IMG/VR virus record: IMGVR_UViG_3300025429_000011
Coordinates: 18,527-82,526 of that record
DNA: 64,000 nucleotides
DNA from: a virus
Taxonomy: Duplodnaviria; Heunggongvirae; Uroviricota; Caudoviricetes
Direction: 5' to 3' (one strand)
The notes beneath the pieces were generated by a model. That model saw only the letters and a list, made by a program, of their open reading frames with translations, was not told the DNA's origin and did no database searches. This document shows positions 1,074 through 63,876 of this stretch, piece by piece. The number at the start of each line of letters is the position of its first letter. The first letter of the stretch is position 1. The position numbers were made by a program, and so were the translations under genes.

Positions 1074-1389
1074 CCTTACTATAGATAAAGGCACTGACTT
1101 TATCTACAATATACATTTAATAGATTCTTCTGGGGTACCTGTTGACATTTCTGATTTTACAGGAAACTCTCAAATGAGAACATCCTATTCGTCCAATGTG
1201 CATGTAACATTGGACGTTGCAATATCAACAGCTAATAATGGGCTTATAACTCTATCAATGAATTCTGAAACTTCTAGCACACTTACTGCGTCTAGATATC
1301 TCTATGATTTAACACTAACAAGTAGTAACAATGTAGTTTCCAGATTAATGGAAGGCTTTGTTACTATTAATCCTAGTGTAACGCGTTAA
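1057..1389 (+). CDS. Hypothetical small Ser/Thr-rich protein downstream of the fibre, possibly a structural or fibre accessory protein.
   Basis: 110-aa ORF overlapping the previous stop. Codon usage is consistent with its neighbours. Confidence 0.4.
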   Translation: MSAQNNLTIDKGTDFIYNIHLIDSSGVPVDISDFTGNSQMRTSYSSNVHVTLDVAISTANNGLITLSMNSETSSTLTASRYLYDLTLTSSNNVVSRLMEGFVTINPSVTR

Positions 1390-4169
1390 ACGCGGTAAAT
1401 ATAAGATCCTGTATGATCACACATTATTGATGTATCAGCATAGATTTTAAACCTTTTTTCTTTACACATTCTAGCAAAGTATAGATCTTCTGAGAATGTG
1501 TGAGCATGATCTAATGCTGACTTATACACAAACTGCGGATAACCAATCTCAGTAAGCACATGCTGTTTAATAAGAGCGCAACCAAAACCAACAGCCCCAA
1601 CTTCTACTAAACCTTTGTCTTTTATTTTCTCATAAGGTATATGAGTATAGCCACCAAGCTCATTTGATTCAAAAATCTCTAGGGTATGCTGACCTTGTAT
1701 TCGTTGAATATAAAGACCAGATACTACATCAACATCATGGCTTAATAGTTTAACTAAAGTATCTGGTGCAAATGAAATATCAGAATCAACTGCAAACAAA
1801 TAATCATACCCTTTAACAACCCAGTCAGCAATCAAGTTACGTACTTGATCTACCTGATATCCGTAAAAGAATTGAAAGTAAGTTTCATATCCAGCTGGTA
1901 CAATCAAATCATAAATGGCTTTAAACGTAGACGCTTCTATATTTCTAGCTGTTGGAATTGCGATTAAAATCTTTTTTTTTATCATATTGTTTAACTTTTC
2001 TGTTGTATTATAAGCAATGATATCTTTTGTAGGAACCATTTCAACATTCAACGGACGAGGCGTCGAATTTACTTCTACTTTATTGATCTGTATTTTTTTA
2101 TCACCAGCTATCTTACTAGCATTCTTATTCTGAATCTCACCATTTACTTTATAATCATTCAATGGATTCTTATCATTATAAAGCATAACAATATCAGAAA
2201 CTACTGCAATCTTATTAGGATCAGCTTGTTCTAATATATTATAAAATGTTGCATTATCACCACCTGCCTTAAACCATTCACCGTTTTCATCTTTAAATAC
2301 AGAATCATCTTCAATGTTATGAACTAGTTCAGATCTAAAAACTCTGAGATGCGGATAAGGCATTCCCCAATTAAACTTATACTGACGATATGCCTTCTGA
2401 TCCTTTACCCATTGCGGATATGGTTGTGACTGTAGCGGGATGTTATCAACCTCCGACCAGCAACTGCCATAAGCATATTCTGTCTTATTATCTGCAAACA
2501 AGTTATTATACATGTTAAAGATATTTGGATCGTTAACTAGAGCATCATCCCCATCAAGGAGTACTACAATACTATCCTTAGGTACATCACGTTTAATATT
2601 TACTATTTGATTGTATACTGCACCACGGTTTACTGGATTATCTACAACAGTAAAATGTTTAATTAAATTAGGATATCTACCTTTAATATATTGTACTACC
2701 AAATCTAAACTACTATCATTACTACAATCATTTATAAGATGCATATGCCAGTTATTATAGTTTTGTGATGCAACTGAATCAATACATCTAATTAAATAAT
2801 CAAATGCATTATAGAAAGGCGTGATTACATGGATTCGTTTTTCTTCCGGTAATTTATATGTATTCCATTCTTCTGGATTACTAAAACGTCTTCCAAATAC
2901 TTTATGAACACGATCATTAATGAAAGATACTTTACGATACTCTTCTACAGGTAGATACAATCCAAGCTTCTTAAAGAGGTGTTGTTTCCATTGTAGTGCA
3001 ACCGTATCCCATCCTGCAATCTCTTTTACAATATTACATGCAAACATTTTTTGTTGATGTAAGTAAGTATTATGATAAGCATCAAAAGCCATACGAGCAA
3101 ATCTATCTGCTTGTTGAGCTACATCAATATTAGGAAAAAGACCATTAGGCTCGATTGCATAATCAATATGGTAACAAGCAGACTCAACTGCTGTCTCTTC
3201 TAATGCACCAAACCTATTAGTTAAAAGAGGTGTATTATAGTATAGAGATTCTAAAGCTGAAATACCGAATGTTTCAGGGAACCCTGCAGGAAAAATAAAA
3301 AATGACGCTTTCTGAAATAATTCTGCTACTTGCTTTTGAGGAATAATACCAGTAAAAGAAACATCCAATTCTTTATACTTTTTATCCTGAGCCAGTTCTT
3401 CTAGCTCTTTTTGTTGTTGATCTGGTTCTGAAGTAGAACTGAATCTATAGTAACCACCAGCAACAACCAATTTAGCATCTGGAATATTACGCTTTACTAA
3501 AGGCCATACATTTGCAAGTAAAGGTTTAAGACCCTTAGAGACTGCTGCAACATAAACAAATAAATTACGATCTTTCTGAAAAATATCTGTATTTTCAAAA
3601 TACTTTACTATGCCGTTTCTTGTCTGGAATACTTTATTTTTTAATACCTCAAAATTGCGGCGATTACCACCATGCCAGCAATTAGTCACATATGCTGTAT
3701 GAAAATCTGATAAAGTAAACATCTCATTAATATGGTTATTTAACAATAACGTCTCTACATGAGGGTCACCCCATATAAAGGTATCATGCATCCATAAAAC
3801 TTTATGTTTACTTACACGTCTAACTTTATCGAAAATTTGATAAGGATATTTTGTAGAATTTTCAATTTGAGACTGAAGAGGAATCGGCACAAAAGGTGTA
3901 ATACAACGTAACGATACCATAACATCATAATAATCATTACATTTTGCTAAAGTACTAATATGTCTATATTCGACTCTATCATAAACACCAGGTTTACAGT
4001 CGATATCATTGCAATCATTATAAATAGTAACTTGAAAGCCAATTTGTGCCAGCTCTCTAGCCATAAGAGCACATGCTGACTCAGAACCACCTAACGCTCG
4101 TTTTTTAATGGTATCTCCGTCATAAACCAAGCCAATAGAATCAATTATTACAATAGACGGATTGCTCAT
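1386..4169 (-). CDS. Three-domain glycosyltransferase: N-terminal GT4/GT-B domain, central GT2 (GT-A) domain and a C-terminal second GT-A-like domain.
   Basis: The GT4 domain has an LGGSE motif, and ..FPAGFPETFGISALESLYYNTPLL shows the E-x7-E motif. The GT2 domain has ITPFYNAFDYLIRCIDSVASQNY and LLDGDDALV. The third domain has ILIAIPT...YLFAVDSDISF. A 927-aa ORF. Confidence 0.75.
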   Translation of the reverse strand: MSNPSIVIIDSIGLVYDGDTIKKRALGGSESACALMARELAQIGFQVTIYNDCNDIDCKPGVYDRVEYRHISTLAKCNDYYDVMVSLRCITPFVPIPLQSQIENSTKYPYQIFDKVRRVSKHKVLWMHDTFIWGDPHVETLLLNNHINEMFTLSDFHTAYVTNCWHGGNRRNFEVLKNKVFQTRNGIVKYFENTDIFQKDRNLFVYVAAVSKGLKPLLANVWPLVKRNIPDAKLVVAGGYYRFSSTSEPDQQQKELEELAQDKKYKELDVSFTGIIPQKQVAELFQKASFFIFPAGFPETFGISALESLYYNTPLLTNRFGALEETAVESACYHIDYAIEPNGLFPNIDVAQQADRFARMAFDAYHNTYLHQQKMFACNIVKEIAGWDTVALQWKQHLFKKLGLYLPVEEYRKVSFINDRVHKVFGRRFSNPEEWNTYKLPEEKRIHVITPFYNAFDYLIRCIDSVASQNYNNWHMHLINDCSNDSSLDLVVQYIKGRYPNLIKHFTVVDNPVNRGAVYNQIVNIKRDVPKDSIVVLLDGDDALVNDPNIFNMYNNLFADNKTEYAYGSCWSEVDNIPLQSQPYPQWVKDQKAYRQYKFNWGMPYPHLRVFRSELVHNIEDDSVFKDENGEWFKAGGDNATFYNILEQADPNKIAVVSDIVMLYNDKNPLNDYKVNGEIQNKNASKIAGDKKIQINKVEVNSTPRPLNVEMVPTKDIIAYNTTEKLNNMIKKKILIAIPTARNIEASTFKAIYDLIVPAGYETYFQFFYGYQVDQVRNLIADWVVKGYDYLFAVDSDISFAPDTLVKLLSHDVDVVSGLYIQRIQGQHTLEIFESNELGGYTHIPYEKIKDKGLVEVGAVGFGCALIKQHVLTEIGYPQFVYKSALDHAHTFSEDLYFARMCKEKRFKIYADTSIMCDHTGSYIYRV

Positions 4170-18392: not shown

Positions 18393-19331
18393 ATGAGTAC
18401 CTATCTTTTAAATGAATATATAGGTGCTGGTTATAGTGATGGTCTAATAATTCCACCTGCAGCACCGTCACAAATTATTTTTACTACAGTAGGTGCATAT
18501 TCATGGGCAGTACCACTAGGAGTAACTAGAATATGTGTTGTTGCAGTTGGGGGAGGTGGTGGAGGTGCAAATATAGCCAACGCTGGAGGAGGTGGCGGAG
18601 GTGGTTTAGTATATCTGAACAATTACACAGTAAAAGCTGGTGATATTGTTTCAGGAATCGTAGGAGATGGTGGTACAGCAAATACAGTAGGTGTTTCTAC
18701 TACAGTACTTGTTAATGGATCTAATATAATTACTGCTCAGGGTGGAAGTGGAGGATCTGGTACTGTTGGTGGATCGGGAGGAAGTGGTACTGGTATCTCA
18801 GGTATAGTTGCAAATTCAGGAGGAGCAGGAGGTAATTTTACTGGTTCTGGATCACCTTACGGTGCAGGTGGAGGTGGTGCTGCAGGTTATTCAGGTGCTG
18901 GAGGACGTGGTGGATTTTCATCAGGAAACTCTGGAGGTATAGCAGCTATTGCAGGTGCAGGAGGTGGTGGCGGTGGCGGGGGAGCTGCTTACAGTACAAA
19001 TAATACCGGTAGTGGTAGTGGTGCTGGAGGTGGTGGTGTTGGACTATTAGGTTCTGGTACAAATGGAACAGCTGGTACTCAAGGTTTTAGAAATACTCCT
19101 GTAAATCCTACTGGAGGCGGTGGTGGTTCAGGAGGAGCAGCTGGTACAAATGGCGGAGTTGTTAGTGCATCTGCTCCAGTTGGAGGAGCATACGGTGGTG
19201 GAGGCGGTGGTACACAGGGTGCTAACGGAAACCCTGCAGTTAACGGTAAAGGCGGGCAAGGTGCTGTAAGAATAATTTACGGTTATTCAACAGACACAAG
19301 AACATTTCCTTCTAATGCCGGGGATTTATAA
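18393..19331 (+). CDS. Glycine-rich domain protein, paralogous to the C-terminus of the 11656 fibre.
   Basis: AYSWAVPLGVTRICVVAVGGGGGGANIANAGGGGGGG ... GAVRIIYGYS matches the pattern of ..TYTTPGSVVWIRVRMIGGGGGGGGGG...GIIMIEEHYGS. Confidence 0.6.
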   Translation: MSTYLLNEYIGAGYSDGLIIPPAAPSQIIFTTVGAYSWAVPLGVTRICVVAVGGGGGGANIANAGGGGGGGLVYLNNYTVKAGDIVSGIVGDGGTANTVGVSTTVLVNGSNIITAQGGSGGSGTVGGSGGSGTGISGIVANSGGAGGNFTGSGSPYGAGGGGAAGYSGAGGRGGFSSGNSGGIAAIAGAGGGGGGGGAAYSTNNTGSGSGAGGGGVGLLGSGTNGTAGTQGFRNTPVNPTGGGGGSGGAAGTNGGVVSASAPVGGAYGGGGGGTQGANGNPAVNGKGGQGAVRIIYGYSTDTRTFPSNAGDL

Positions 19332-55200: not shown

Positions 55201-55721
55201 TGTATTATTCAACAAAGACATATGGTACTGATAGAGGTTTAAGTTGTTGCTTCCGTCAATGGAAAGCAGATCATAGTCACTGTTCTACTCTTCATGGCTA
55301 CTCGATCGGTATTAAATTAATTTTTAAATCAGAAACCCTTGATGAAAAAAACTGGGTTATGGACTTTGGTGGACTAAAAGCTTTTAAGGCTTGGGCTGAT
55401 CATATGTTTGATCATACAATGCTTATTGCACAAGATGATCCACATTTAGATACTTTTATCGAATTGAATAATATTGGTGGTGGTTTTAACGATAGCGGTG
55501 TTGTTGATCTGCGTATAGTTGATGCAGTTGGATGTGAGGCATTTGCTGAAATGACTTATCACGTTATGAATAATATCTTGAAATCATTTCAGGAAGGTGA
55601 TATAGTAGAGATTGATGATCAAGAATATACTGCACGGTATCCTGTCAACAAAGGTGTAAAGCTAGTTTCGGTAGAAGTATTTGAACATGCAGGTAATTCT
55701 GCAGTATACGAAGGTGAATAA
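55200..55721 (+). CDS. queD: 6-carboxy-5,6,7,8-tetrahydropterin synthase QueD (PTPS T-fold).
   Basis: ..CSTLHGYS..NWVMDFGGLKAFKAWADHMFDHTMLIAQDDP..VFEHAGNSAVYEGE aligns with E. coli QueD (..[51 protein letters not shown]). Confidence 0.8.
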   Translation: MYYSTKTYGTDRGLSCCFRQWKADHSHCSTLHGYSIGIKLIFKSETLDEKNWVMDFGGLKAFKAWADHMFDHTMLIAQDDPHLDTFIELNNIGGGFNDSGVVDLRIVDAVGCEAFAEMTYHVMNNILKSFQEGDIVEIDDQEYTARYPVNKGVKLVSVEVFEHAGNSAVYEGE

Positions 55722-56422
55722 TGATTAAAGGTTATAGAGATTATTTTACACCAGTAGTAGTAGAAGAAGAGCAGCCGATTAAAAAACTTTCAGCTATTAT
55801 TTTTTCTTGCTCATTAAAATCAGATCCAAATAAATCTATGTCTCATTATCTTAGTGAGATAGTTAAAGATAAGTTTGATGCAGAAAATATTGAAACAGAA
55901 ATTGTTTATATTAAAGATCTAAAAGATTTTAAATTTGGTGTAGAAAGAGAAGTTGAAGGTGAAAAAGATGACTTTACAGACTACATTGATAAAGTAATTA
56001 ATTCTGATATAGTTATTGTTGCCACTCCTATATGGTGGGGCGTCCATTCTAGTCTTGCACAAGCAGTCTTAGAAAGATTAACTTGGTTTGATGATGAAGC
56101 ATTAAGAACAAATCATAGTTTACTTTACGGTAAACTTTTTGGTACTATTGTTTCAGGTGCAGAAGATGGATGGCAACACATTCAAGGTAATATGTTTAAT
56201 TTTGCTTCTGAGCTAGGGTTTATAGTTCCTCCAAAAGCTTTTATTTCATCTAAGATGCAGAGTAAAAAAGAAATAGATAAAGACAAAGAGACACAAGACC
56301 AAGTTAATAGTTTTACTACTATTATGGTTGATCTTTGTAAAGTAATTTCATATAATGATTTAAATCAGTCGTTTCAATCAAATGGATTTTTGCAAGTAGG
56401 TACACTTGCTGGTAAAAAATAA
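55721..56422 (+). CDS. Flavodoxin-like fold protein (NAD(P)H-dependent FMN reductase family-like).
   Basis: SDIVIVATPIWWGVHSSLAQAVLERLTW resembles the FMN_red / flavodoxin_2 core (DA.I..SP.Y.G....LK...D). Confidence 0.4.
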   Translation: MIKGYRDYFTPVVVEEEQPIKKLSAIIFSCSLKSDPNKSMSHYLSEIVKDKFDAENIETEIVYIKDLKDFKFGVEREVEGEKDDFTDYIDKVINSDIVIVATPIWWGVHSSLAQAVLERLTWFDDEALRTNHSLLYGKLFGTIVSGAEDGWQHIQGNMFNFASELGFIVPPKAFISSKMQSKKEIDKDKETQDQVNSFTTIMVDLCKVISYNDLNQSFQSNGFLQVGTLAGKK

Positions 56423-56433
56423 TTGCAAGATAT

Positions 56434-57165
56434 ATGAAAGAGTTAGATATGAATGAATTAAACACACTACCAGTATCAGTAAGAATTAAGGAGCAATTAA
56501 AGAATGCCAATATTCGTTATTTTGCCAATGATAACGTTAGTCAATTTTTGGACGATGAATCTCGTGCTCTACTCATCGACGAGGTAGCAGATAAATTTGA
56601 AGGTGTTTTACGCTCTTTGTTAATCGACGTCGATAATGATCCTAATTCCAAAGGCACTGCTCACCGTCTTGCTAAGATGTACATTAATGAAATTATGTCT
56701 GGGAGATATTATAATGAACCTACTGTCACTTCATTCCCTAATGACGGGTCGCATGGAACGAAGCCTTATCATGGTATGCTTGTTGTCCGTGCTGAACTTA
56801 AGTCTATGTGTTCTCACCACCATCAACCTGTTACGGGAACCGCTTACATTGGAGTCATCCCTTCTACTAATGTTATCGGTCTCAGTAAGTATATTAGGAT
56901 TGCACAACATTGTGCAAGACGTGGCACTCTTCAAGAAGAACTTTGCGGGGACATCGCCGCAGCAATAAGTAAAGCAACACAGTCTAAAGACGTTGGTGTT
57001 TATATTGAAGCAACCCACGGCTGCTGTGAAAACAGAGGTATTATGGCTTCTAATAGTCTCACACAAACGTCAGTATTACTTGGTGATTTCTTAGATGATG
57101 CTTCAGTAAAGAATGAATTCTATAGTAATATTAAGTTACAGACAAGTCGTTATAGCTGTAACTAA
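56434..57165 (+). CDS. folE: GTP cyclohydrolase I FolE.
   Basis: KSMCSHHHQPVTGTAYIGVIPSTNVIGLSKYIRIAQHCARRGTLQEEL matches FolE (MCEHHLVPF.GKAHVAYIP...VVGLSK..R.V..FA.R.Q.QE.L). Confidence 0.9.
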   Translation: MKELDMNELNTLPVSVRIKEQLKNANIRYFANDNVSQFLDDESRALLIDEVADKFEGVLRSLLIDVDNDPNSKGTAHRLAKMYINEIMSGRYYNEPTVTSFPNDGSHGTKPYHGMLVVRAELKSMCSHHHQPVTGTAYIGVIPSTNVIGLSKYIRIAQHCARRGTLQEELCGDIAAAISKATQSKDVGVYIEATHGCCENRGIMASNSLTQTSVLLGDFLDDASVKNEFYSNIKLQTSRYSCN

Positions 57166-57177
57166 TTGAAATACATG

Positions 57178-57214
57178 AGGTTCTTTTCAGTTGATTTTTT
57201 ACTGAAAAGAACCT
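57178..57214 (+). terminator. Perfect 14-bp stem hairpin (aggttcttttcagt / actgaaaagaacct) with a 9-nt T-rich loop, after folE.
   Basis: Read directly. An A/T-rich tract follows. Confidence 0.5.
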
Positions 57215-57250
57215 ATTATTATAATTATAGGAAGAAATGGAGAATCACCT

Positions 57251-57463
57251 ATGATTAATCTTGATCAATACGTTAAAGCAGTTTGGGATGCAAAGACTGA
57301 CGCAGATAAACGTACTGCAATGGAGGCATTAGTAGATGCTTCTCATGCCAAAAAAGAAACTAAAATTCTTACCAAGCTTAAAATTAAAACTCTGTATGGC
57401 AAAAAGCTAGACTCTTTTGCTACCAACTATGCTTTTTCTGGTGAAGGTATGAAGGTAAGTTAA
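57251..57463 (+). CDS. Hypothetical small protein.
   Basis: 70-aa ORF with a GGAGAA RBS. Confidence 0.4.
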   Translation: MINLDQYVKAVWDAKTDADKRTAMEALVDASHAKKETKILTKLKIKTLYGKKLDSFATNYAFSGEGMKVS

Positions 57464-57464
57464 G

Positions 57465-57818
57465 ATGAATTACTCATATTTTAAGAAAAACTATCTAATA
57501 GATAATTTATTAGATTATGATGGATATCCTAAACATACGCGATTTATTAAAAAGCTCTTTTATAGGTTTGCAGATGAGTTATTTAATGATTTTGGGTTTA
57601 ATATGCGTAAATGTTCTATATGCGGAATTGAAGATAAGTGGAATGGCAGACCTTTTATGATGGAACTTGACCATATTAACCGTATTACTAATGATTCAAG
57701 AATTGAAAATCTCAGAATTATATGTCCTATTTGTCATTCACAAACAGATGGTTACAAAAATAGGAAGATAACTATCGAAGAATATCATAGAAAGATGGTA
57801 TGTGATGGTATGGTATGA
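57465..57818 (+). CDS. HNH endonuclease.
   Basis: CSICG...ELDHINRITNDSRIENLRIICPICHSQT has the HNH core with flanking CxxC zinc-binding pairs. Confidence 0.7.
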   Translation: MNYSYFKKNYLIDNLLDYDGYPKHTRFIKKLFYRFADELFNDFGFNMRKCSICGIEDKWNGRPFMMELDHINRITNDSRIENLRIICPICHSQTDGYKNRKITIEEYHRKMVCDGMV

Positions 57819-58233
57819 AAACTCAGAAGGCCGGCATGGTAAAAATGGTGCTAAAGGTGATGCTGGTGAAAAATTTGTATCTGAGTATTTTGAAAAAAGA
57901 GGATTTGAATGGAAACATTTAAAAGATCCACACAGTCAGTATAATAGAGGTATAGATTTTATTGTTAATGGGTACCCTATAGATGTAAAAACAAATGGTA
58001 AGGAAAACACTCTTACTGTTGAATTGAAGAAAGAAGGCAAACAAGGTTGGCTTTATAAATCAGAAGCTGTATTTATTTTTGGTGTTGATTTAAAGCAAAA
58101 AGAAATATATGTTTATAGATTAGTAAAAATGCGTGAATATGTTAAAGAAAATATTAATAAAGCTTACTATAGAGGTGATGATTTGTTAATTAAAGTTCCT
58201 AAAACTTTAGAATTTATAAAAAGGTTACAATGA
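57802..58233 (+). CDS. Hypothetical protein with a PD-(D/E)xK nuclease-like motif.
   Basis: GIDFIVNGYPIDVKT matches the D...(D/E)xK pattern. Overlaps the HNH gene. Confidence 0.35.
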   Translation: MMVWYENSEGRHGKNGAKGDAGEKFVSEYFEKRGFEWKHLKDPHSQYNRGIDFIVNGYPIDVKTNGKENTLTVELKKEGKQGWLYKSEAVFIFGVDLKQKEIYVYRLVKMREYVKENINKAYYRGDDLLIKVPKTLEFIKRLQ

Positions 58234-59021
58234 AAATAGCACATGAAGCTCCTATAAGTATATTTCCTACAGTTCAGCTTATGACCGATTATGATTATGC
58301 GCTGGTACATTTATTTGAATCTAATTTAATGTATTACCGCATGTTCAAGGATGCAGTGGTAAGCGGACGTGAAGTAATTCTTGATAATTCTATTTTTGAA
58401 TTAGGTACATCATTTGATGGTGATACTTATTTTAATTGGATTGAAAAGTTACAACCTACATGGTACATTATACCAGATGTACTAGAAGATAAACAGGGCA
58501 CTTTGGATAAAATGGATAATTGGTTATCTAAGTATAAAGTCTCTTCAAATATTAAATCTATTGGTGTTATTCAAGGTAAGACTTTTGATGAGCTTGCTGA
58601 ATGTTATTTAAAGATTGCTCCACGGGTAGATAAAATTGCAATCTCTTTTGATTACTCATACTATATAGAATCAACAAAAGATATTAATCCTACTAGCAAA
58701 TACGCTGCATGGATGTTTGGTCGTCAAGCATTGTTAGAGGATTTACTTGCTGATGGTATTATAGATACTAACAAGCCCCATCATTTATTAGGTTGCGCTT
58801 TACCACAAGAATTCTCTGCCTATAAAGACTATAAGTGGATTGACTCTGTTGATACTTCTAATCCTGTAGTACACGGGTTAAATGGTATACATTATACTTC
58901 TAATGGCTTAGATAGTAAAATTTCTACTAAGCTTATTGAGTATATGAACGAACAAGTAACCGATATACAACTTGGTATGGTTAAATATAATATTGAAAAA
59001 TTTAGAGAGTTTTGTAATTGA
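58230..59021 (+). CDS. dpdA: DpdA-like 7-deazaguanine DNA transglycosylase (TGT-fold TIM barrel).
   Basis: IGVIQGKTFDE matches TGT FGIVQGG. HLLGCALPQEF..WIDSVDTSNPV matches TGT YLMGVGTPEDL..GIDMFDCVMPTRNA (catalytic Asp region). It is embedded in the preQ0/preQ1 biosynthesis cluster. Confidence 0.7.
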   Translation: MKIAHEAPISIFPTVQLMTDYDYALVHLFESNLMYYRMFKDAVVSGREVILDNSIFELGTSFDGDTYFNWIEKLQPTWYIIPDVLEDKQGTLDKMDNWLSKYKVSSNIKSIGVIQGKTFDELAECYLKIAPRVDKIAISFDYSYYIESTKDINPTSKYAAWMFGRQALLEDLLADGIIDTNKPHHLLGCALPQEFSAYKDYKWIDSVDTSNPVVHGLNGIHYTSNGLDSKISTKLIEYMNEQVTDIQLGMVKYNIEKFREFCN

Positions 59022-59554
59022 GACCGTGGATAGCTCTTTTTAGTCAAACTGGAAGTGAACTCAAAAGTATTTGTGATCACTTTAACGTATGGCCTACAAA
59101 CATATATACTAACAATTATAATGAAGATCAATGGGCTCATAATATACCTGTTGATAAAGTAACCATTATGAGCCATGATGCTATTCATAATGGATTGCGC
59201 TTTACTAAGCAAAATTGCTTTGTAACCTTGCATGGATATCTTCGTATTATACCTGCTGACGTTTGTAAAATGCATGACATTTACAACGGTCATCCTGCAC
59301 CTATACATCTTTATCCAGAACTTAAAGGTAAAGACCCTCAAGAGCGTATTTGGGAAGGTAATGCCAGGTATCATACATTAGGTTCAGTTATTCACAGAGT
59401 AACAGAAGGTGTTGATGAAGGCGAAATAGTTTATAGTGTTATTGAAGATAATACTTGCATTAGTAAGGAAGAGCTTTATAATACACTTAAGGATTGCTCA
59501 TATAATTCGTGGATTGAATTTTTAGAAAGTAAGATAGATGTCAGCAAAAGATAA
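59018..59554 (+). CDS. Formyltransferase (PurN/Fmt N-terminal-domain family). Candidate DpdN-type preQ1 formyltransferase.
   Basis: IYNGHPAPIHLYPELKG matches PurN LLNIHPSLLPKYPG. YHTLGSVIHRVTEGVDEGEIV matches EHGTSVHFVTDELDGGPVI. The N/H/D catalytic triad is conserved. Confidence 0.65.
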   Translation: MRPWIALFSQTGSELKSICDHFNVWPTNIYTNNYNEDQWAHNIPVDKVTIMSHDAIHNGLRFTKQNCFVTLHGYLRIIPADVCKMHDIYNGHPAPIHLYPELKGKDPQERIWEGNARYHTLGSVIHRVTEGVDEGEIVYSVIEDNTCISKEELYNTLKDCSYNSWIEFLESKIDVSKR

Positions 59555-59792
59555 TAAAGATGCAATTAGACCTAATCATTATAAAGGTAAAGGTAAATAC
59601 GAATGCATCGATGTAATTGAAGATCTCTGCAATACTTCTACTAATGATCGATTTACTGACTACAATAGGTTTCAAGCTTTTAAATATGTCTGGCGTGCAG
59701 GTAATAAAGATCCTGTAATTCAGGATCTTAAGAAAGCTATTACGTTTTTAGAATTTGCAATTGCATATGAGGAAAAGAAAAATGTCAAGTAA
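59538..59792 (+). CDS. Hypothetical small protein.
   Basis: 84-aa ORF. Confidence 0.35.
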   Translation: MSAKDNKDAIRPNHYKGKGKYECIDVIEDLCNTSTNDRFTDYNRFQAFKYVWRAGNKDPVIQDLKKAITFLEFAIAYEEKKNVK

Positions 59793-60723
59793 GATTGAAG
59801 ATATTGCATCCGTACACTTAGGAAAGGCTGGAGATGGATCAGTTGTTAAGCCTTATATTACTCCCGATTTTATTGATCGTAGCCTTCTTGTGGGTATTCC
59901 TCGCATGCTTAATCGCACTGCTTACAATATTGATGAATCTGATCTACCTTTCGTTGGTTTTGATACTTGGAACTGTTATGAGTTTTCTACCCTTACTGAT
60001 AATGGGTTTCCTGTTTGTGGTGTTATTAGGATTAGTTATCCGTCTGATTCGCCTAATATTGTAGAGTCAAAGTCACTTAAACTCTATATGAACTCATTTA
60101 ACATGACTCACTGTGGTAAGACCGTTGAGGATGTTATTGCAAAAGCAGAAGAAGTTATTATTCAAGATCTTGCACCTGCATTAGGTATTGAGTATGATGA
60201 TCTCTCAGTATCATTTGTTAATGAGTTTTCAGATACAGTAACACCAATCAAGAATTATTTTGCTCTTCTTGAAACTACAGTAGATGTAGAAAATATTTCG
60301 TTTGACCATTTTAACGAAGATCCAGATATCTTACAAATTGTAGATTATACTGGTATGAATCAAAATGGTATGCAAGTACGTTCTGCAGTTCTTCGTTCTA
60401 ACTGCCGTGTTACTAATCAGCCAGACTGGGGTGATGTATATATTTCATTCAGAGGTGAAAAAGGTGTAACACCTGAATCACTACTACAGTATATTGTTTC
60501 TATGCGTAAAGAAAATCACTTTCATGAAGAGATTTGTGAGTGCATTTATAAGCGACTTCATGATATGCTACAACCAGAAGATCTTTTTGTAGCATGTCTG
60601 TATACACGTCGTGGTGGTATTGATATTAATCCAGCACGCGCTTCTAGCTATGAGCTATTAATGACTTATGCAGATAATCTAAGCAAGACTCATAAATTGA
60701 ACAATAAGACATTGAGGCAGTAA
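59782..60723 (+). CDS. queF: NADPH-dependent 7-cyano-7-deazaguanine reductase QueF (bimodular, E. coli type).
   Basis: MSS..LGK...Y...Y....L.G.PR.LNR..........LPF.G.D.W..YE.S.L...G.P..... VESKSLKLYMNSFN, SNCRVTNQPDWG, ENHFHEEICE and YTRRGGIDINP align across E. coli QueF. Confidence 0.9.
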   Translation: MSSKIEDIASVHLGKAGDGSVVKPYITPDFIDRSLLVGIPRMLNRTAYNIDESDLPFVGFDTWNCYEFSTLTDNGFPVCGVIRISYPSDSPNIVESKSLKLYMNSFNMTHCGKTVEDVIAKAEEVIIQDLAPALGIEYDDLSVSFVNEFSDTVTPIKNYFALLETTVDVENISFDHFNEDPDILQIVDYTGMNQNGMQVRSAVLRSNCRVTNQPDWGDVYISFRGEKGVTPESLLQYIVSMRKENHFHEEICECIYKRLHDMLQPEDLFVACLYTRRGGIDINPARASSYELLMTYADNLSKTHKLNNKTLRQ

Positions 60724-61469
60724 TGAACTTACAAGAAGCATTAGCAGCATTACCTGATACAGATGATAATGTAGTATCCGTTCTTTCTGGTGGAATGGAT
60801 TCTACTATCATGACTTACATCCTTGTTGCAAAGTATGGCAAGGAAAGAGTTTTTGCTTTATCATATAACTATGGTCAAAAGCAAAAGAAAGAACTTGAGA
60901 TGGCTGCCAAGACATGTGAATATCTTGGCATTGCTCATAAAGTATTGGATCTTGGAATTCTTGGTGATATTGTAAAGGATGTCAGTGCAAATATCGGCGG
61001 CACTGACGTGGCTATGCCAACCATCAAAGATGTTCTTGGAGATCCACAACCTAAAACTTATGTACCATTCCGCAATATGATCTTAAATGCATTAGCATTT
61101 TCATTTGCTGAATCTAATAAAGCTTCTCATGTATTTACCGGTTTACAAGTACATGACGAGTATGGCTACTGGGATACTTCTCAGAAATTTGTTGATAATA
61201 TGAATGCAGTTGCTGGTCTTAATCGCACCCACAAGGTTAAGCTTGAAGCGCCTTTTAGTCAATTAGCAAAGTGGGAAGAGATCAAGATTGCAGAGGAGCT
61301 TGGTAATGTTAAACTTGAATACACTCTTACTTGTTATGATCCTGATGATGATGGAAGGTCATGTGGTGTTTGCCCCAGCTGTTCGGAGCGTATACAGAAT
61401 TTTATTAGAGCTAATGTTCGTGATCCTATTGCTTACGTACACGGTATCGATTGGGATAGATTTATATAA
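60723..61469 (+). CDS. queC: 7-cyano-7-deazaguanine synthase QueC.
   Basis: PP-loop VLSGGMDST, ..YNYGQKQKKELE..AHKVLDL, and a C-terminal Zn cluster CYDPDDDGRSCGVCPSCSER. Confidence 0.9.
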   Translation: MNLQEALAALPDTDDNVVSVLSGGMDSTIMTYILVAKYGKERVFALSYNYGQKQKKELEMAAKTCEYLGIAHKVLDLGILGDIVKDVSANIGGTDVAMPTIKDVLGDPQPKTYVPFRNMILNALAFSFAESNKASHVFTGLQVHDEYGYWDTSQKFVDNMNAVAGLNRTHKVKLEAPFSQLAKWEEIKIAEELGNVKLEYTLTCYDPDDDGRSCGVCPSCSERIQNFIRANVRDPIAYVHGIDWDRFI

Positions 61470-62098
61470 TGTGCAGTATCATTGGTTCTTTCAGTAAAGA
61501 TAAAATTGCTGACCTCGTAAAGCTAAACCTTTATAGAGGTCAGCATTCATATTCTTATTCTTACTATAACCTTGAAGATAATACAATCCAAGTAAACAGA
61601 GGCTTAGGTGAGATACCTCTTGATGCTATTAACATACCCGATAGGTGCTATTGTATTGCTCATATGCAGGCGCCTACAACAGAAAATAAAGATATAAATT
61701 CTGTTCACCCTGCTTATAGTGGTAATGCTTTACTATGGCATAACGGTATAGTAAAGGCAAAATGGATTAACGAACGTAAGCAACAATATGAAGGTGACCG
61801 TTATAATACTTGGGATACTTATTTGATTTTAAAGCAGTATGCTGAGGAAGGTCACCTAAATAATATTGATGGTACTTTTTCCTGTGTGTACTACAGTCCT
61901 ATGGAAGGATTGCAGTTGTTTCGCAATCTCATTTCACCATTGTTCATAGATGATGATCATAATATCTCATCTACAAAATTTGAAAATTCTCAACCATTAC
62001 CTGCAAATATTATCTGGAGTTTTAATCCAGGTGAAGGTATTATAAGAGATGGTATTTTTAATACAGTTGAAAACCCTTATTATGGATTAGATTTATGA
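61469..62098 (+). CDS. Class-II (Ntn) glutamine amidotransferase domain protein, translationally coupled to queC (TAATG).
   Basis: N-terminal MCSIIG (Cys2 nucleophile after Met removal). 209 aa, the size of a stand-alone GATase-II domain. Confidence 0.55.
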   Translation: MCSIIGSFSKDKIADLVKLNLYRGQHSYSYSYYNLEDNTIQVNRGLGEIPLDAINIPDRCYCIAHMQAPTTENKDINSVHPAYSGNALLWHNGIVKAKWINERKQQYEGDRYNTWDTYLILKQYAEEGHLNNIDGTFSCVYYSPMEGLQLFRNLISPLFIDDDHNISSTKFENSQPLPANIIWSFNPGEGIIRDGIFNTVENPYYGLDL

Positions 62099-62610
62099 GT
62101 ATGTTACATATTGCTTCAAAGAAAACCAAATCAAGTTTAACCAATATGTTGGATGAAGATATCCAACCTAATGCCGTTGATCTTCGTCTTGATAAAATTT
62201 TTATTATTCATCCTGCTCTCTTTACTCTTGGTACTGATGATACTGGTAAAGAAATCAAAAAGCATAGAGGATCAGTAGAGATATATCCTGATAGTGAAGG
62301 TTACTTTTATTTGCATCCAGGTAATGCATACGAAGTTATTATGGAAAATGTTATTGAGGTAGGTGATGGTGAAGCAGGTTGGGTTATTACCAGAAGTACT
62401 CTTAATCGTAATGGTTTGTATATTACTTCCGGTTTATATGACTCTGGCTATCATGGAGTTATGGCTGGTGCTCTACATGTAAAAAATGGTCCAGCAAAAA
62501 TTAAAAAAGGTAGCCGTATTGGCCAGTTTTTACTTTTTAAGTCTGAGTCACTAAAGAAGTATGATGGTGATTATGGTCTCGGTAAAGAGCATGATAAAAA
62601 ATATACTTGA
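62095..62610 (+). CDS. dCTP deaminase / dUTPase superfamily protein (Dcd-like).
   Basis: NAVDLRLD matches Dcd ATVDVRLG. EGYFYLHPGNAYEV matches Dcd EGEAFYLHPGELAL. GLYDSGYHGVM resembles dUTPase motif III G.IDxDYRG. Confidence 0.65.
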   Translation: MSMLHIASKKTKSSLTNMLDEDIQPNAVDLRLDKIFIIHPALFTLGTDDTGKEIKKHRGSVEIYPDSEGYFYLHPGNAYEVIMENVIEVGDGEAGWVITRSTLNRNGLYITSGLYDSGYHGVMAGALHVKNGPAKIKKGSRIGQFLLFKSESLKKYDGDYGLGKEHDKKYT

Positions 62611-62802: not shown

Positions 62803-63876
62803 ATGGAAATTAAAATTGATTTAGAATTATTGCGCTCTAAGAAAATTTTCTTAGCTACACCAATGTATGGTGGTAATTGTAACGGCATGTATACCCGTTC
62901 ATTGTGTGACTTGACCGCTATGTGTGTTAAGTATGGTATTGAACTTCGTTCTTACTTTCTTTTCAACGAGTCCTTGATTACACGTGCTCGTAACTATTGT
63001 GTTGACGAGTTTATGCGTTCAGGTGCAGATCACCTTCTATTCATTGACTCTGACATTGGATTTAATCCACAAGACGTTATTGCTATGATGGCATTGCAAG
63101 CAGCAGAACCAGAGAAGTATAATGTTATTGGTGGTCCATATCCTAAGAAGTGTATTACATGGGAAAAGATTCTTGCTGCTGTTAATAAAGGTGTAGCAGA
63201 TCAAAATCCTAATCAGTTAGAAGATTTCGTCGGTGATTTTGTTTTTAATCCAGTTATTACAGGTGAGCAGACTTCTATTCGTCTTGATGAGCCAGCTGAA
63301 GTTCTTGAGATCGGTACAGGCTTTATGATGGTAACACGTGATACTTTCTTGACATTTGAAAAAGAGTATCCACAGTATTCCTATAAACCAGATCATGTTC
63401 GCACCGAAGCCTTTGATGGTTCACGTGAAATTATGATGTACTTCCAGGCTGAAAAAGATGGTTTAGATTATGGCAAGTTCTATGCTGACGGTATGCAGAA
63501 AATTGCCGCTATGCGTCTCAACGATCCTGATCTAGTACAAGCAGAAATTGAAAAGTTAATGGCAACTGCTATTGAAATGGATTCAAGAACTTCTAAGCGT
63601 TATCTCTCAGAGGATTATTGGTTCTGTCAATTAGTTCGCCGTATTGGATTGAAAGTCTGGTTGTGCCCTTGGATGCACTTACAGCATGCTGGTACATATG
63701 TGTTTGCTGGTAAGCTACCTGCATTAGCTTCAATTGGTGCATCTGCAACTGCTGATGCTGCTCTTCTTAATAAATTTAAGAACGGCGGTGTAGCTAAACC
63801 AGCAATCGCACCTTCAAAGTCTACACCGGTCATTGCTAATGATCCTGCTCTTCTTAGCAAGTTTAAGAAGATTTAA
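62803..63876 (+). CDS. GT-A-fold glycosyltransferase-like protein, paralogous to the C-terminal domain of the 1386-4169 glycosyltransferase.
   Basis: KIFLATPMYGG...HLLFIDSDIGFNPQD matches KILIAIPTARN...YLFAVDSDISFAPDT. The C-terminus has a tandem repeat, AALLNKFKNG / PALLSKFKKI. Confidence 0.45.
   Translation: MEIKIDLELLRSKKIFLATPMYGGNCNGMYTRSLCDLTAMCVKYGIELRSYFLFNESLITRARNYCVDEFMRSGADHLLFIDSDIGFNPQDVIAMMALQAAEPEKYNVIGGPYPKKCITWEKILAAVNKGVADQNPNQLEDFVGDFVFNPVITGEQTSIRLDEPAEVLEIGTGFMMVTRDTFLTFEKEYPQYSYKPDHVRTEAFDGSREIMMYFQAEKDGLDYGKFYADGMQKIAAMRLNDPDLVQAEIEKLMATAIEMDSRTSKRYLSEDYWFCQLVRRIGLKVWLCPWMHLQHAGTYVFAGKLPALASIGASATADAALLNKFKNGGVAKPAIAPSKSTPVIANDPALLSKFKKI

Follow-up and report, generated by a model that had tools for sequence, protein, structure and literature searches.

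PreQ1 (7-aminomethyl-7-deazaguanine) in phage DNA is a guanine substitute that shields the genome from host restriction enzymes. In the closest described system, that of Flavobacterium phage immuto 2-6A, the DNA contains 345,000 residues of 7-(formylamino)methyl-7-deazaguanine (fdPreQ1) per 10^6 nucleotides and neither dG nor the deoxynucleoside of preQ1 (dPreQ1), with all guanine replaced (PMC10516641). That study, published in Nucleic Acids Research in 2023, gave the name DpdN to gp067 of this phage (YP_010114479.1), a PF00551 protein adjoining the deazaguanine genes of an fdPreQ1 phage. Another phage deazaguanine cluster enzyme, DpdM (Cellulophaga phage phiSM and Vibrio phage VH7D), likewise works on the preQ1 moiety at its aminomethyl nitrogen, but its fold and chemistry are unrelated to those of DpdN, and DpdM, which has been validated in vivo, reaches no more than a few per cent of dPreQ1, whereas the DNA of immuto, a DpdN phage, is fully formylated. 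Here we analyze a 64-kb stretch of a tailed phage genome (IMG/VR record IMGVR_UViG_3300025429_000011, positions 18,527 to 82,526), henceforth the window, and specifically the open reading frame (ORF) at 59018-59554 on its plus strand. All positions are those of the whole stretch; compared loci are labelled L0xx and metagenomic proteins P0xxx. We predict, with a probability of roughly 0.78, that this ORF encodes a DpdN-type formyltransferase acting on the preQ1 moiety, and the gene thus adds a member to the family named in 2023.

The ORF encodes a protein of 178 aa that contains both formyltransferase motifs previously picked out from its sequence, IYNGHPAP (residues 88-95) and VTEGVDEGEIV (residues 128-138), with the catalytic Asn, His and Asp kept. 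The Pfam Formyl_trans_N domain (PF00551) matches residues 68-159 with 33.9 bits (E 3e-8; gathering cut-off 26.1). As the sequence-only reading had described, the start overlaps the dpdA stop: within the letters TTGA, the TTG start codon (59018-59020) runs into the TGA that ends the upstream ORF (58230-59021), which belongs to the DpdA3 subfamily. No other start is available, because the conserved N-terminus R-P-W-[IV]-A-L-F-S-Q-T-G-S-E opens at residue 2; the metagenomic protein P0001, 99% identical, is likewise 178 aa long. Conservation of the ORF is far above chance, with at least 837 homologues in an index of 5.8 billion proteins and, once clustered at 50% identity, no fewer than 266 clusters at E ≤ 1e-30. 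A minus-strand ORF at 58892-59374 was rejected as a real gene, having no homologues against the strong conservation of the plus-strand ORF. The shortness of the protein relative to PurN, on which the same reading had remarked, is real (178 aa versus 212 aa in E. coli PurN) but not diagnostic, given that genuine cyanophage PurNs span 174-191 aa.

When 50,697 phage records were searched by tblastn, the only match was gp067 of the immuto phages (39% identity, 96% coverage, E 5e-30), and a search with E. coli PurN retrieved 76 phage records, immuto not among them. In the neighbour-joining inference, the comparators were PurN, Fmt, ArnA and PurU from E. coli, PurNs from cyanophages and a PurU from Ralstonia. 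On the resulting tree the window protein, immuto DpdN and 38 metagenomic relatives are monophyletic in 200 of 200 bootstrap replicates; E. coli PurN and three cyanophage PurNs form a separate clade (195/200), which joins the DpdN clade in only 2/200. The reading as a DpdN-like enzyme rather than a PurN, which had been put forward without any searches, is therefore supported by the phylogeny. With PurN, PurU, Fmt and ArnA the window protein shares 16-20% of its residues (17-20% with PurNs; 17% with the N-terminal domain of E. coli Fmt). On the NCBIfam PurN equivalog TIGR00639, whose cut-off is 150.1 bits, it reaches 27.5 bits, over residues 67-139 only, and the fmt equivalog gives no match to the ORF, whose chain ends at residue 178 without the C-terminal tRNA-binding domain.

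The AlphaFold2 model of the window protein, computed from input rows without the immuto sequence, is of high confidence (predicted local distance difference test score, pLDDT, 95.5; predicted template modelling score, pTM, 0.90) and presents one domain spanning the whole chain. Foldseek searches of the model against the PDB returned PurN structures 4s1n and 5cjj as top matches over the full length (template modelling score, TM, 0.76-0.77; about 19% identity), and against BFVD giant-virus Fmt-like proteins only. Because the structural matches to PurN are full-length, the protein, as modelled, is a whole PurN-type domain and not a fragment. It shares with PurN (EC 2.1.2.2) the fold (TM about 0.76), the Asn/His/Asp triad, the G-[FY]-[ML]-R-I strand, the V-T-x-x-[LV]-D-x-G loop and the helix-1 loop. 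The N-terminal domain of ArnA and the sugar N-formyltransferases are members of the same superfamily that also keep the triad and act on a primary amine of a nucleotide-linked substrate, but their similarity to the window protein is weaker (TM about 0.7, 12-16% identity), and they differ in having extra C-terminal parts and another substrate site.

Residue-level comparison separates the clade from PurN in the substrate site while keeping the catalytic center. The PurN residues Asn106, His108 and Asp144 correspond to N90, H92 and D133 of the window protein and PurN His137 to H126, all of them invariant in the DpdN clade in alignments of 40, 117 and 139 sequences; no change at all is seen at S9, G12, E14, G73, N90, H92, P93, G104, H126, D133 and W165 among 138 cluster representatives, whose identity to the window ORF is only 30-48%. 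His108 and Asp144 have been described as catalytic in PurN (PMC3261824), and the folate-pocket residues L85, R90, I91 and L/V143 of PurN (PMC5562383) are kept as L71, R76, I77 and V132, as is Asp144, which is counted with that pocket too. Four residues invariant in the four PurNs are exchanged in all 40 clade members, namely N10 (T11), N13 (E14), Q170 (K/R158) and E173 (S161). These four positions, the S-G-N-G-[ST]-N loop included, are what we take to be the phosphate and ribose contacts of glycinamide ribonucleotide (GAR) in the E. coli and human structures, and all four are lost in the DpdN clade. In turn, the clade has acquired two invariant residues, His72 and Trp165, a glycine (Gly91) that separates the catalytic Asn from the catalytic His, an insertion of three residues and, in the active-site loop, the motif Y-P-E-L-K-G-K-D-P-Q; its signature reads S9-x-T11-G12-S13-E14, H72, L102-K-G-K-D-P-Q108, S161 and W165. 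The small loop at the N-terminus of helix 1 is kept in shape, with an invariant S-x-T/S-G-x-E, and PurU, Fmt and ArnA are devoid of it.

The features of sequence, architecture and context that define DpdN are thus present: the sequence grouping, the PF00551 core with Asn/His/Asp, the short single-domain form as opposed to the longer 'group 3' formylases of the 2023 paper, and the association with DpdA and the full FolE-QueD-QueE-QueC-QueF pathway. Since clustering within PurN with intact GAR-binding residues was not seen, the proposal of a DpdN-like enzyme rather than a PurN of purine biosynthesis stands, supported by both in silico attempts to refute it (clade membership and GAR-binding residues). 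Two variations were observed within the family: divergent fusion members (in L098, L094 and L099) carry N-L-H-P instead of N-G-H-P in the catalytic stretch, and the 392-aa metagenomic protein P0124 combines a lysine-rich, histone-H1-like N-terminal tail with a degenerate DpdN copy lacking the catalytic motifs and an intact DpdN copy.

In the window, FolE, QueD, QueE, QueC, QueF and DpdA3 all lie within 54056-61469, in a module laid out as follows:

54056-54946, plus strand: QueE, radical-SAM 7-carboxy-7-deazaguanine (CDG) synthase; ATG 54083 is a possible start
55200-55721, plus strand: QueD, 6-carboxytetrahydropterin (CPH4) synthase of the 6-pyruvoyltetrahydropterin synthase (PTPS) family
56434-57165, plus strand: FolE, GTP cyclohydrolase I
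58230-59021, plus strand: guanine transglycosylase of the DpdA3 subfamily, 263 aa; 4-nt overlap of its stop with the start of DpdN
59018-59554, plus strand: DpdN-family formyltransferase (predicted), 178 aa, TTG start
59538-59792, plus strand: DUF3310 protein, 84 aa, with a T7 gp1.7 nucleotide-kinase-type domain (Pfam 47.3 bits); 17-nt overlap with the DpdN stop
59755-60723, plus strand: QueF, bimodular NADPH-dependent preQ0 reductase making preQ1; the true start is probably the ATG at 59767 or 59782
60723-61469, plus strand: QueC, preQ0 synthase (Pfam 180.9 bits; TIGR00364 172 bits, cut-off 150)
61469-62098, plus strand: class-II glutamine amidotransferase-like protein starting M-C-S (GATase_6 23.8 bits, under the cut-off of 27)
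62095-62610, plus strand: divergent protein of the dCTP deaminase/dUTPase superfamily, below both equivalog cut-offs

The small ORF that had been noticed ahead of queF is therefore the DUF3310 protein. Like the window protein, immuto DpdN is a single domain of about 175 aa with the same triad and signature, 39-40% identical over its full length and placed in the same 200/200 clade, and it is encoded downstream of DpdA3 and upstream of QueF. The two loci differ in that dpdA and dpdN overlap by 4 nt in the window, where DpdN is translationally coupled to DpdA3, but are separated by a small ORF in immuto; in the gene that follows dpdN, which encodes DUF3310 in the window and an AAA_28 'thymidylate kinase' in immuto; and in that the window has a separate amidotransferase after QueC, absent from immuto, and lacks a MazG-like gene next to DpdA3.

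The window DpdA has no Pfam match. Full-length comparison with immuto DpdA3 gives 57% identity, and the DpdA3 proteins of Campylobacter phage CP220 and Cellulophaga phage phiST share 37% and 24% with it; in these three DpdA3 phages guanine replacement is complete (PMC10516641). Searched against PDB sequences, the DpdA3 profile gave a marginal match to bDpdA (7ui4, E 0.29). To assess the linkage of both genes we compared 80 IMG/VR loci and immuto (81 loci in total), treating eight divergent loci from metagenome-assembled genomes (MAGs) separately. DpdA3 lies directly upstream of DpdN in 77 of the 81 loci and QueF downstream in 76/81, most exceptions of either kind being contig ends; DpdA3 is upstream in all eight divergent MAG loci as well. 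The codon for Trp4 of DpdN falls within 30 nt past the DpdA stop in 80 of 85 pairs (median 5 nt), with typical overlaps of -8, -4 and -1. Two loci encode DpdA3-DpdN fusions, P0229 (L098 2262-3605, 447 aa) and the ORF at L094 7209-8570 (454 aa), and one of these two contigs comes from a gut Lachnospiraceae MAG. These fusions, and a pairing that holds in relatives as distant as 35% identity, show that DpdA3 and DpdN work together.

The family is carried by at least 559 IMG/VR stretches, and a search of 185,579 species genomes yielded eight matches, all on MAG contigs that also bear DpdA3; its range is essentially viral. The window phage itself is T4-like, the rest of the window encoding terminase, sheath, portal, prohead protease, scaffold, major head protein, UvsW and a gp46/47-like nuclease of a myovirus, and a megablast search of positions 58000-62000 against phage records gave no match, which indicates that no deposited genome is closely related to it in DNA sequence.

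The position directly after DpdN revealed a slot for a nucleotide-kinase-type gene. Among 90 loci with enough downstream sequence, the slot is occupied by an AAA_28 P-loop kinase in 58, by a DUF3310 protein in 25 (the closest relatives of the window included) and by a DUF1599-like protein, 'nucleotide modification associated domain 1', in one; in five of the six loci presenting none of these, the P-loop kinase is found within 1.8 kb. The slot types never co-occur in one locus, and the type switches at least four times on the DpdN tree in every bootstrap replicate. The slot gene of immuto, annotated as a thymidylate kinase, is AAA_28 by Pfam. Slot domains are also found fused to DpdN itself, as DpdN-AAA_28 (P0179, L099 8001-9044), a tmk-like kinase with DpdN (P0220), DpdN-DUF3310 (P0022) and DpdN-DUF1599 (P0212). 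T7 gp1.7 has no Pfam domain besides DUF3310 (81.5 bits, residues 122-184), a link made previously (PMC10700055), and gp1.7 phosphorylates dGMP and dTMP (PMC11897194). The window DUF3310 protein aligns to residues 119-191 of gp1.7 (hhalign probability 88%) and matches PHROGs families labelled 'nucleotide kinase'. Its AlphaFold2 model (three helices, pLDDT 81) has no fold match in the PDB, and the fold is hence uninformative on kinase function.

A second type of neighbor recurs beside DpdA3. CP220 (L100 4868-7361) presents an HD plus P-loop protein, then DpdA3 and then an AAA_28 kinase; phiST (L101 4564-6726) presents MazG, a hypothetical gene and an AAA_18 protein ahead of DpdA3; and in immuto (L001 7326-10049) a MazG-like gene and a hypothetical gene precede DpdA3. 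In each of the three, DpdA3 is accompanied by a nucleoside triphosphate (NTP) pyrophosphohydrolase of the HD or MazG-like kind and by a P-loop kinase. Phage 9g (L103), which carries DpdA1 and modifies 25% of its G, has no such neighbors.

Extrapolating from PurN chemistry, DpdN would use 10-formyl-tetrahydrofolate as the formyl donor and, as the acceptor, the preQ1 moiety at its exocyclic 7-aminomethyl nitrogen: this amine nitrogen would attack the formyl carbon, His92 and Asp133 would move protons and Asn90 would steady the tetrahedral intermediate. The outcome would be phage DNA with fdPreQ1 instead of G. As to the order of events, gene context leads us to favor, tentatively and at odds somewhat short of even, a route at the nucleotide level, in which DpdA3 would place preQ1 on deoxyribose 5'-phosphate, DpdN would formylate the resulting dPreQ1-monophosphate, and the product of the slot gene (a P-loop kinase, here DUF3310) would phosphorylate the formylated nucleotide for the polymerase. 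This order is favored because of the kinase slot, the fusions of kinase and DUF3310 domains to DpdN, the NTP-pyrophosphohydrolase neighbors and the complete replacement in DpdA3 phages, and also because of the descent of DpdN from an enzyme acting on a ribonucleotide 5'-phosphate, the retained helix-1 loop and the acidic isoelectric points (pI; medians 5.2 for DpdA3 and 6.2 for the DpdN family), pI being weak evidence as a proxy for DNA binding.

By extension, DpdA3 phages may build the modified deoxynucleotide in the pool rather than modify replicated DNA, a conjecture to which we grant a real if minority chance. A pyrophosphohydrolase would generate dGMP, DpdA3, here a minimal, acidic enzyme resembling tRNA-guanine transglycosylase (TGT), would exchange guanine for preQ1, DpdN would formylate it, and the kinase would begin its conversion to the triphosphate used by the phage polymerase. 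The pre-replicative pathways of T4 (hydroxymethyl-deoxycytidine, hmdC) and S-2L (Z base) use a dNTP pyrophosphatase, a base-modifying enzyme acting on the dNMP and a dNMP kinase. The surroundings of DpdA3 and DpdN follow the same logic, with an NTP pyrophosphohydrolase, modifying enzymes, a nucleotide kinase and complete base replacement, but the modifying enzymes are not homologous, and the nucleotide-level route is here read from gene context. If true, DpdA3 would be the first enzyme of the TGT superfamily to act as a transglycosylase on nucleotides, and this would explain why only DpdA3 phages reach 100% guanine replacement.

Several points weigh against these proposals. To our knowledge, every characterized TGT/DpdA enzyme acts on polynucleotides. 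The phosphate-binding Asn13 of PurN is replaced in the clade by an invariant Glu, with no obvious gain for phosphate binding. The window DUF3310 protein, with 84 aa against the 196 aa of gp1.7, lacks the N-terminal ~120 aa of the latter, and kinase activity of the domain alone is putative; the P-loop protein of other slots could instead be a DpdB-like ATPase helper. Within the 64-kb window no MazG, HD enzyme or P-loop kinase was found. The compared loci share ancestry, and their counts are not independent events. The presence of fdPreQ1 in the DNA of the window phage is a prediction from its genes, and immuto DpdN itself is worded in the 2023 paper, which reports no assay of it, as a 'proposed preQ1 or dPreQ1 formylase', its authors proposing post-replicative insertion (PMC10516641). 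Our literature search found no biochemistry of DpdN or DpdA3 later than that paper, and no nucleotide-level model.

If the protein is indeed DpdN, it might act instead on the free base, formylating preQ1 from QueF, with DpdA3 then inserting formyl-preQ1 after replication and the overlapping or fused pair channelling the base. This order, which we deem unlikely while taking it seriously, fits the position of the gene between dpdA and queF, the DpdA3-DpdN fusions and an acidic family pI (median 6.2) that suits a small-molecule enzyme; the lack of leftover dPreQ1 in immuto DNA would also follow easily if DpdA3 takes only formyl-preQ1. It leaves unexplained, however, a nucleotide-kinase-type gene that abuts or is fused to DpdN in nearly all loci, and it sits uneasily with a GAR-phosphate loop that keeps its shape and its invariant S-x-T/S-G-x-E here and is lost in PurU, Fmt and ArnA.

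Under the post-replicative model of 2023, and again taking the protein to be DpdN, DpdA3 would insert preQ1 in replicated DNA and DpdN would then formylate dPreQ1 in the duplex. Both bDpdA and DpdA1/2 work on DNA (PMC10164549, PMC10516641), the lysine-rich N-terminal tail of P0124 is of a DNA-binding kind, and the DpdA3-DpdN fusion is also compatible with consecutive action on DNA. Against this, replacement and formylation are complete in immuto, whereas DpdM, working at the DNA level, reaches about 5% (212 mdPreQ1 versus 3790 dPreQ1; PMC10516641), and DpdA3 and DpdN are both acidic. The kinase and NTP-pyrophosphohydrolase neighbors would moreover go unexplained unless the P-loop protein were an ATPase helper, in which case its replacement by DUF3310 would be odd. 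We give this model about the same weight as the free-base order.

Less room is left for a formyltransferase-fold enzyme with another job, be it a different amine, hydrolysis of formyl-tetrahydrofolate as in PurU or a structural partnership with DpdA3. No member of the DpdN family has been assayed and the catalytic triad is also found in PurU, but immuto, the sole phage of the clade with analyzed DNA, carries exactly the predicted product, no other formyltransferase is encoded in the cluster, and the invariant triad speaks against a purely structural role; we hold this whole alternative improbable. Finally, an ordinary auxiliary PurN boosting purine synthesis as in cyanophages can be set aside as highly improbable, for although the nearest families in Pfam, NCBIfam and PHROGs are all PurN-type, the fold is nearest PurN, cyanophage PurNs are equally short and public annotations label relatives PurN, the window protein falls far below the PurN equivalog cut-off at 17-20% identity, belongs to a separate clade that an E. 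coli PurN query does not reach, has N10, N13, Q170 and E173 replaced and a three-residue insertion, new loop motif and H72/W165 added, and is surrounded by deazaguanine rather than pur genes.

The remaining genes of the module region present varied degrees of conservation. The amidotransferase-like protein at 61469-62098 is found in 55 of the 81 loci, and Pseudomonas phage pf16 and the KVP40-like Vibrio phages also have it adjoining QueC; it resembles a split Gat-QueC and could supply ammonia to QueC or divert preQ0 to archaeosine. The protein at 62095-62610 (dUTPase 81 bits against a cut-off of 130, dCTP deaminase 48 against 93) is kept in 46/81 loci, and a dCTP-deaminase/dUTPase-like protein directly follows the DpdA3-DpdN fusion in L094; the window protein is a candidate member of the pathway. 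The dUTPase adjoining DpdA3 in L099 was not counted as a pathway gene, being an ordinary dUTPase.

Upstream of QueE lies a peptide deformylase (53367-53846, plus strand; Pfam 125.6 bits), its position kept in about 24 of the 81 loci and in L096; a deformylase in a formylated-base module is curious, yet peptide deformylases are common phage auxiliary genes. It is preceded by a cupin-domain protein (52708-53367, plus strand), a cupin being also found near the phiST deazaguanine cluster (L101 4-435), and this in turn by a 359-aa ORF (51632-52711, plus strand) with an S-G-G-I-D-S PP-loop motif, no family or PDB match and a homologue in one of the 81 loci. An NADPH-dependent FMN reductase between QueD and FolE (55721-56422, plus strand) and an HNH endonuclease between FolE and DpdA (57465-57818, plus strand), neither with a homologue in the 81 loci, are insertions peculiar to the window phage. 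Directly upstream of DpdA3, in a position kept in 34/81 loci, a 143-aa protein (57802-58233, plus strand) has no sequence match in Pfam, NCBIfam, PHROG or PDB; its GIDFIV...IDVKT stretch resembles, by eye only, a PD-(D/E)xK nuclease motif. Past the module, a 357-aa PHROG 1574 protein (62803-63876, plus strand) with faint glycosyltransferase similarity lies near the module in 52/81 loci, and its domain recurs at the opposite end of the window (1386-4169, minus strand) as the C-terminus of a 927-aa protein that contains a glycosyltransferase.

The gene itself would not surprise a specialist. The interchangeable kinase slot, the DpdA3-DpdN fusions, the size of the DpdN family and its strict viral range are apparently unreported before, as far as we have found. 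fdPreQ1 is among the newest natural DNA bases, and the window offers a confidently modelled, predicted DpdN amid an intact pathway. The recurring, swappable nucleotide-kinase slot makes it directly testable whether DpdA3 phages replace guanine before or after replication, and the answer bears on the evasion of restriction by phages and on the enzymatic synthesis of modified DNA.

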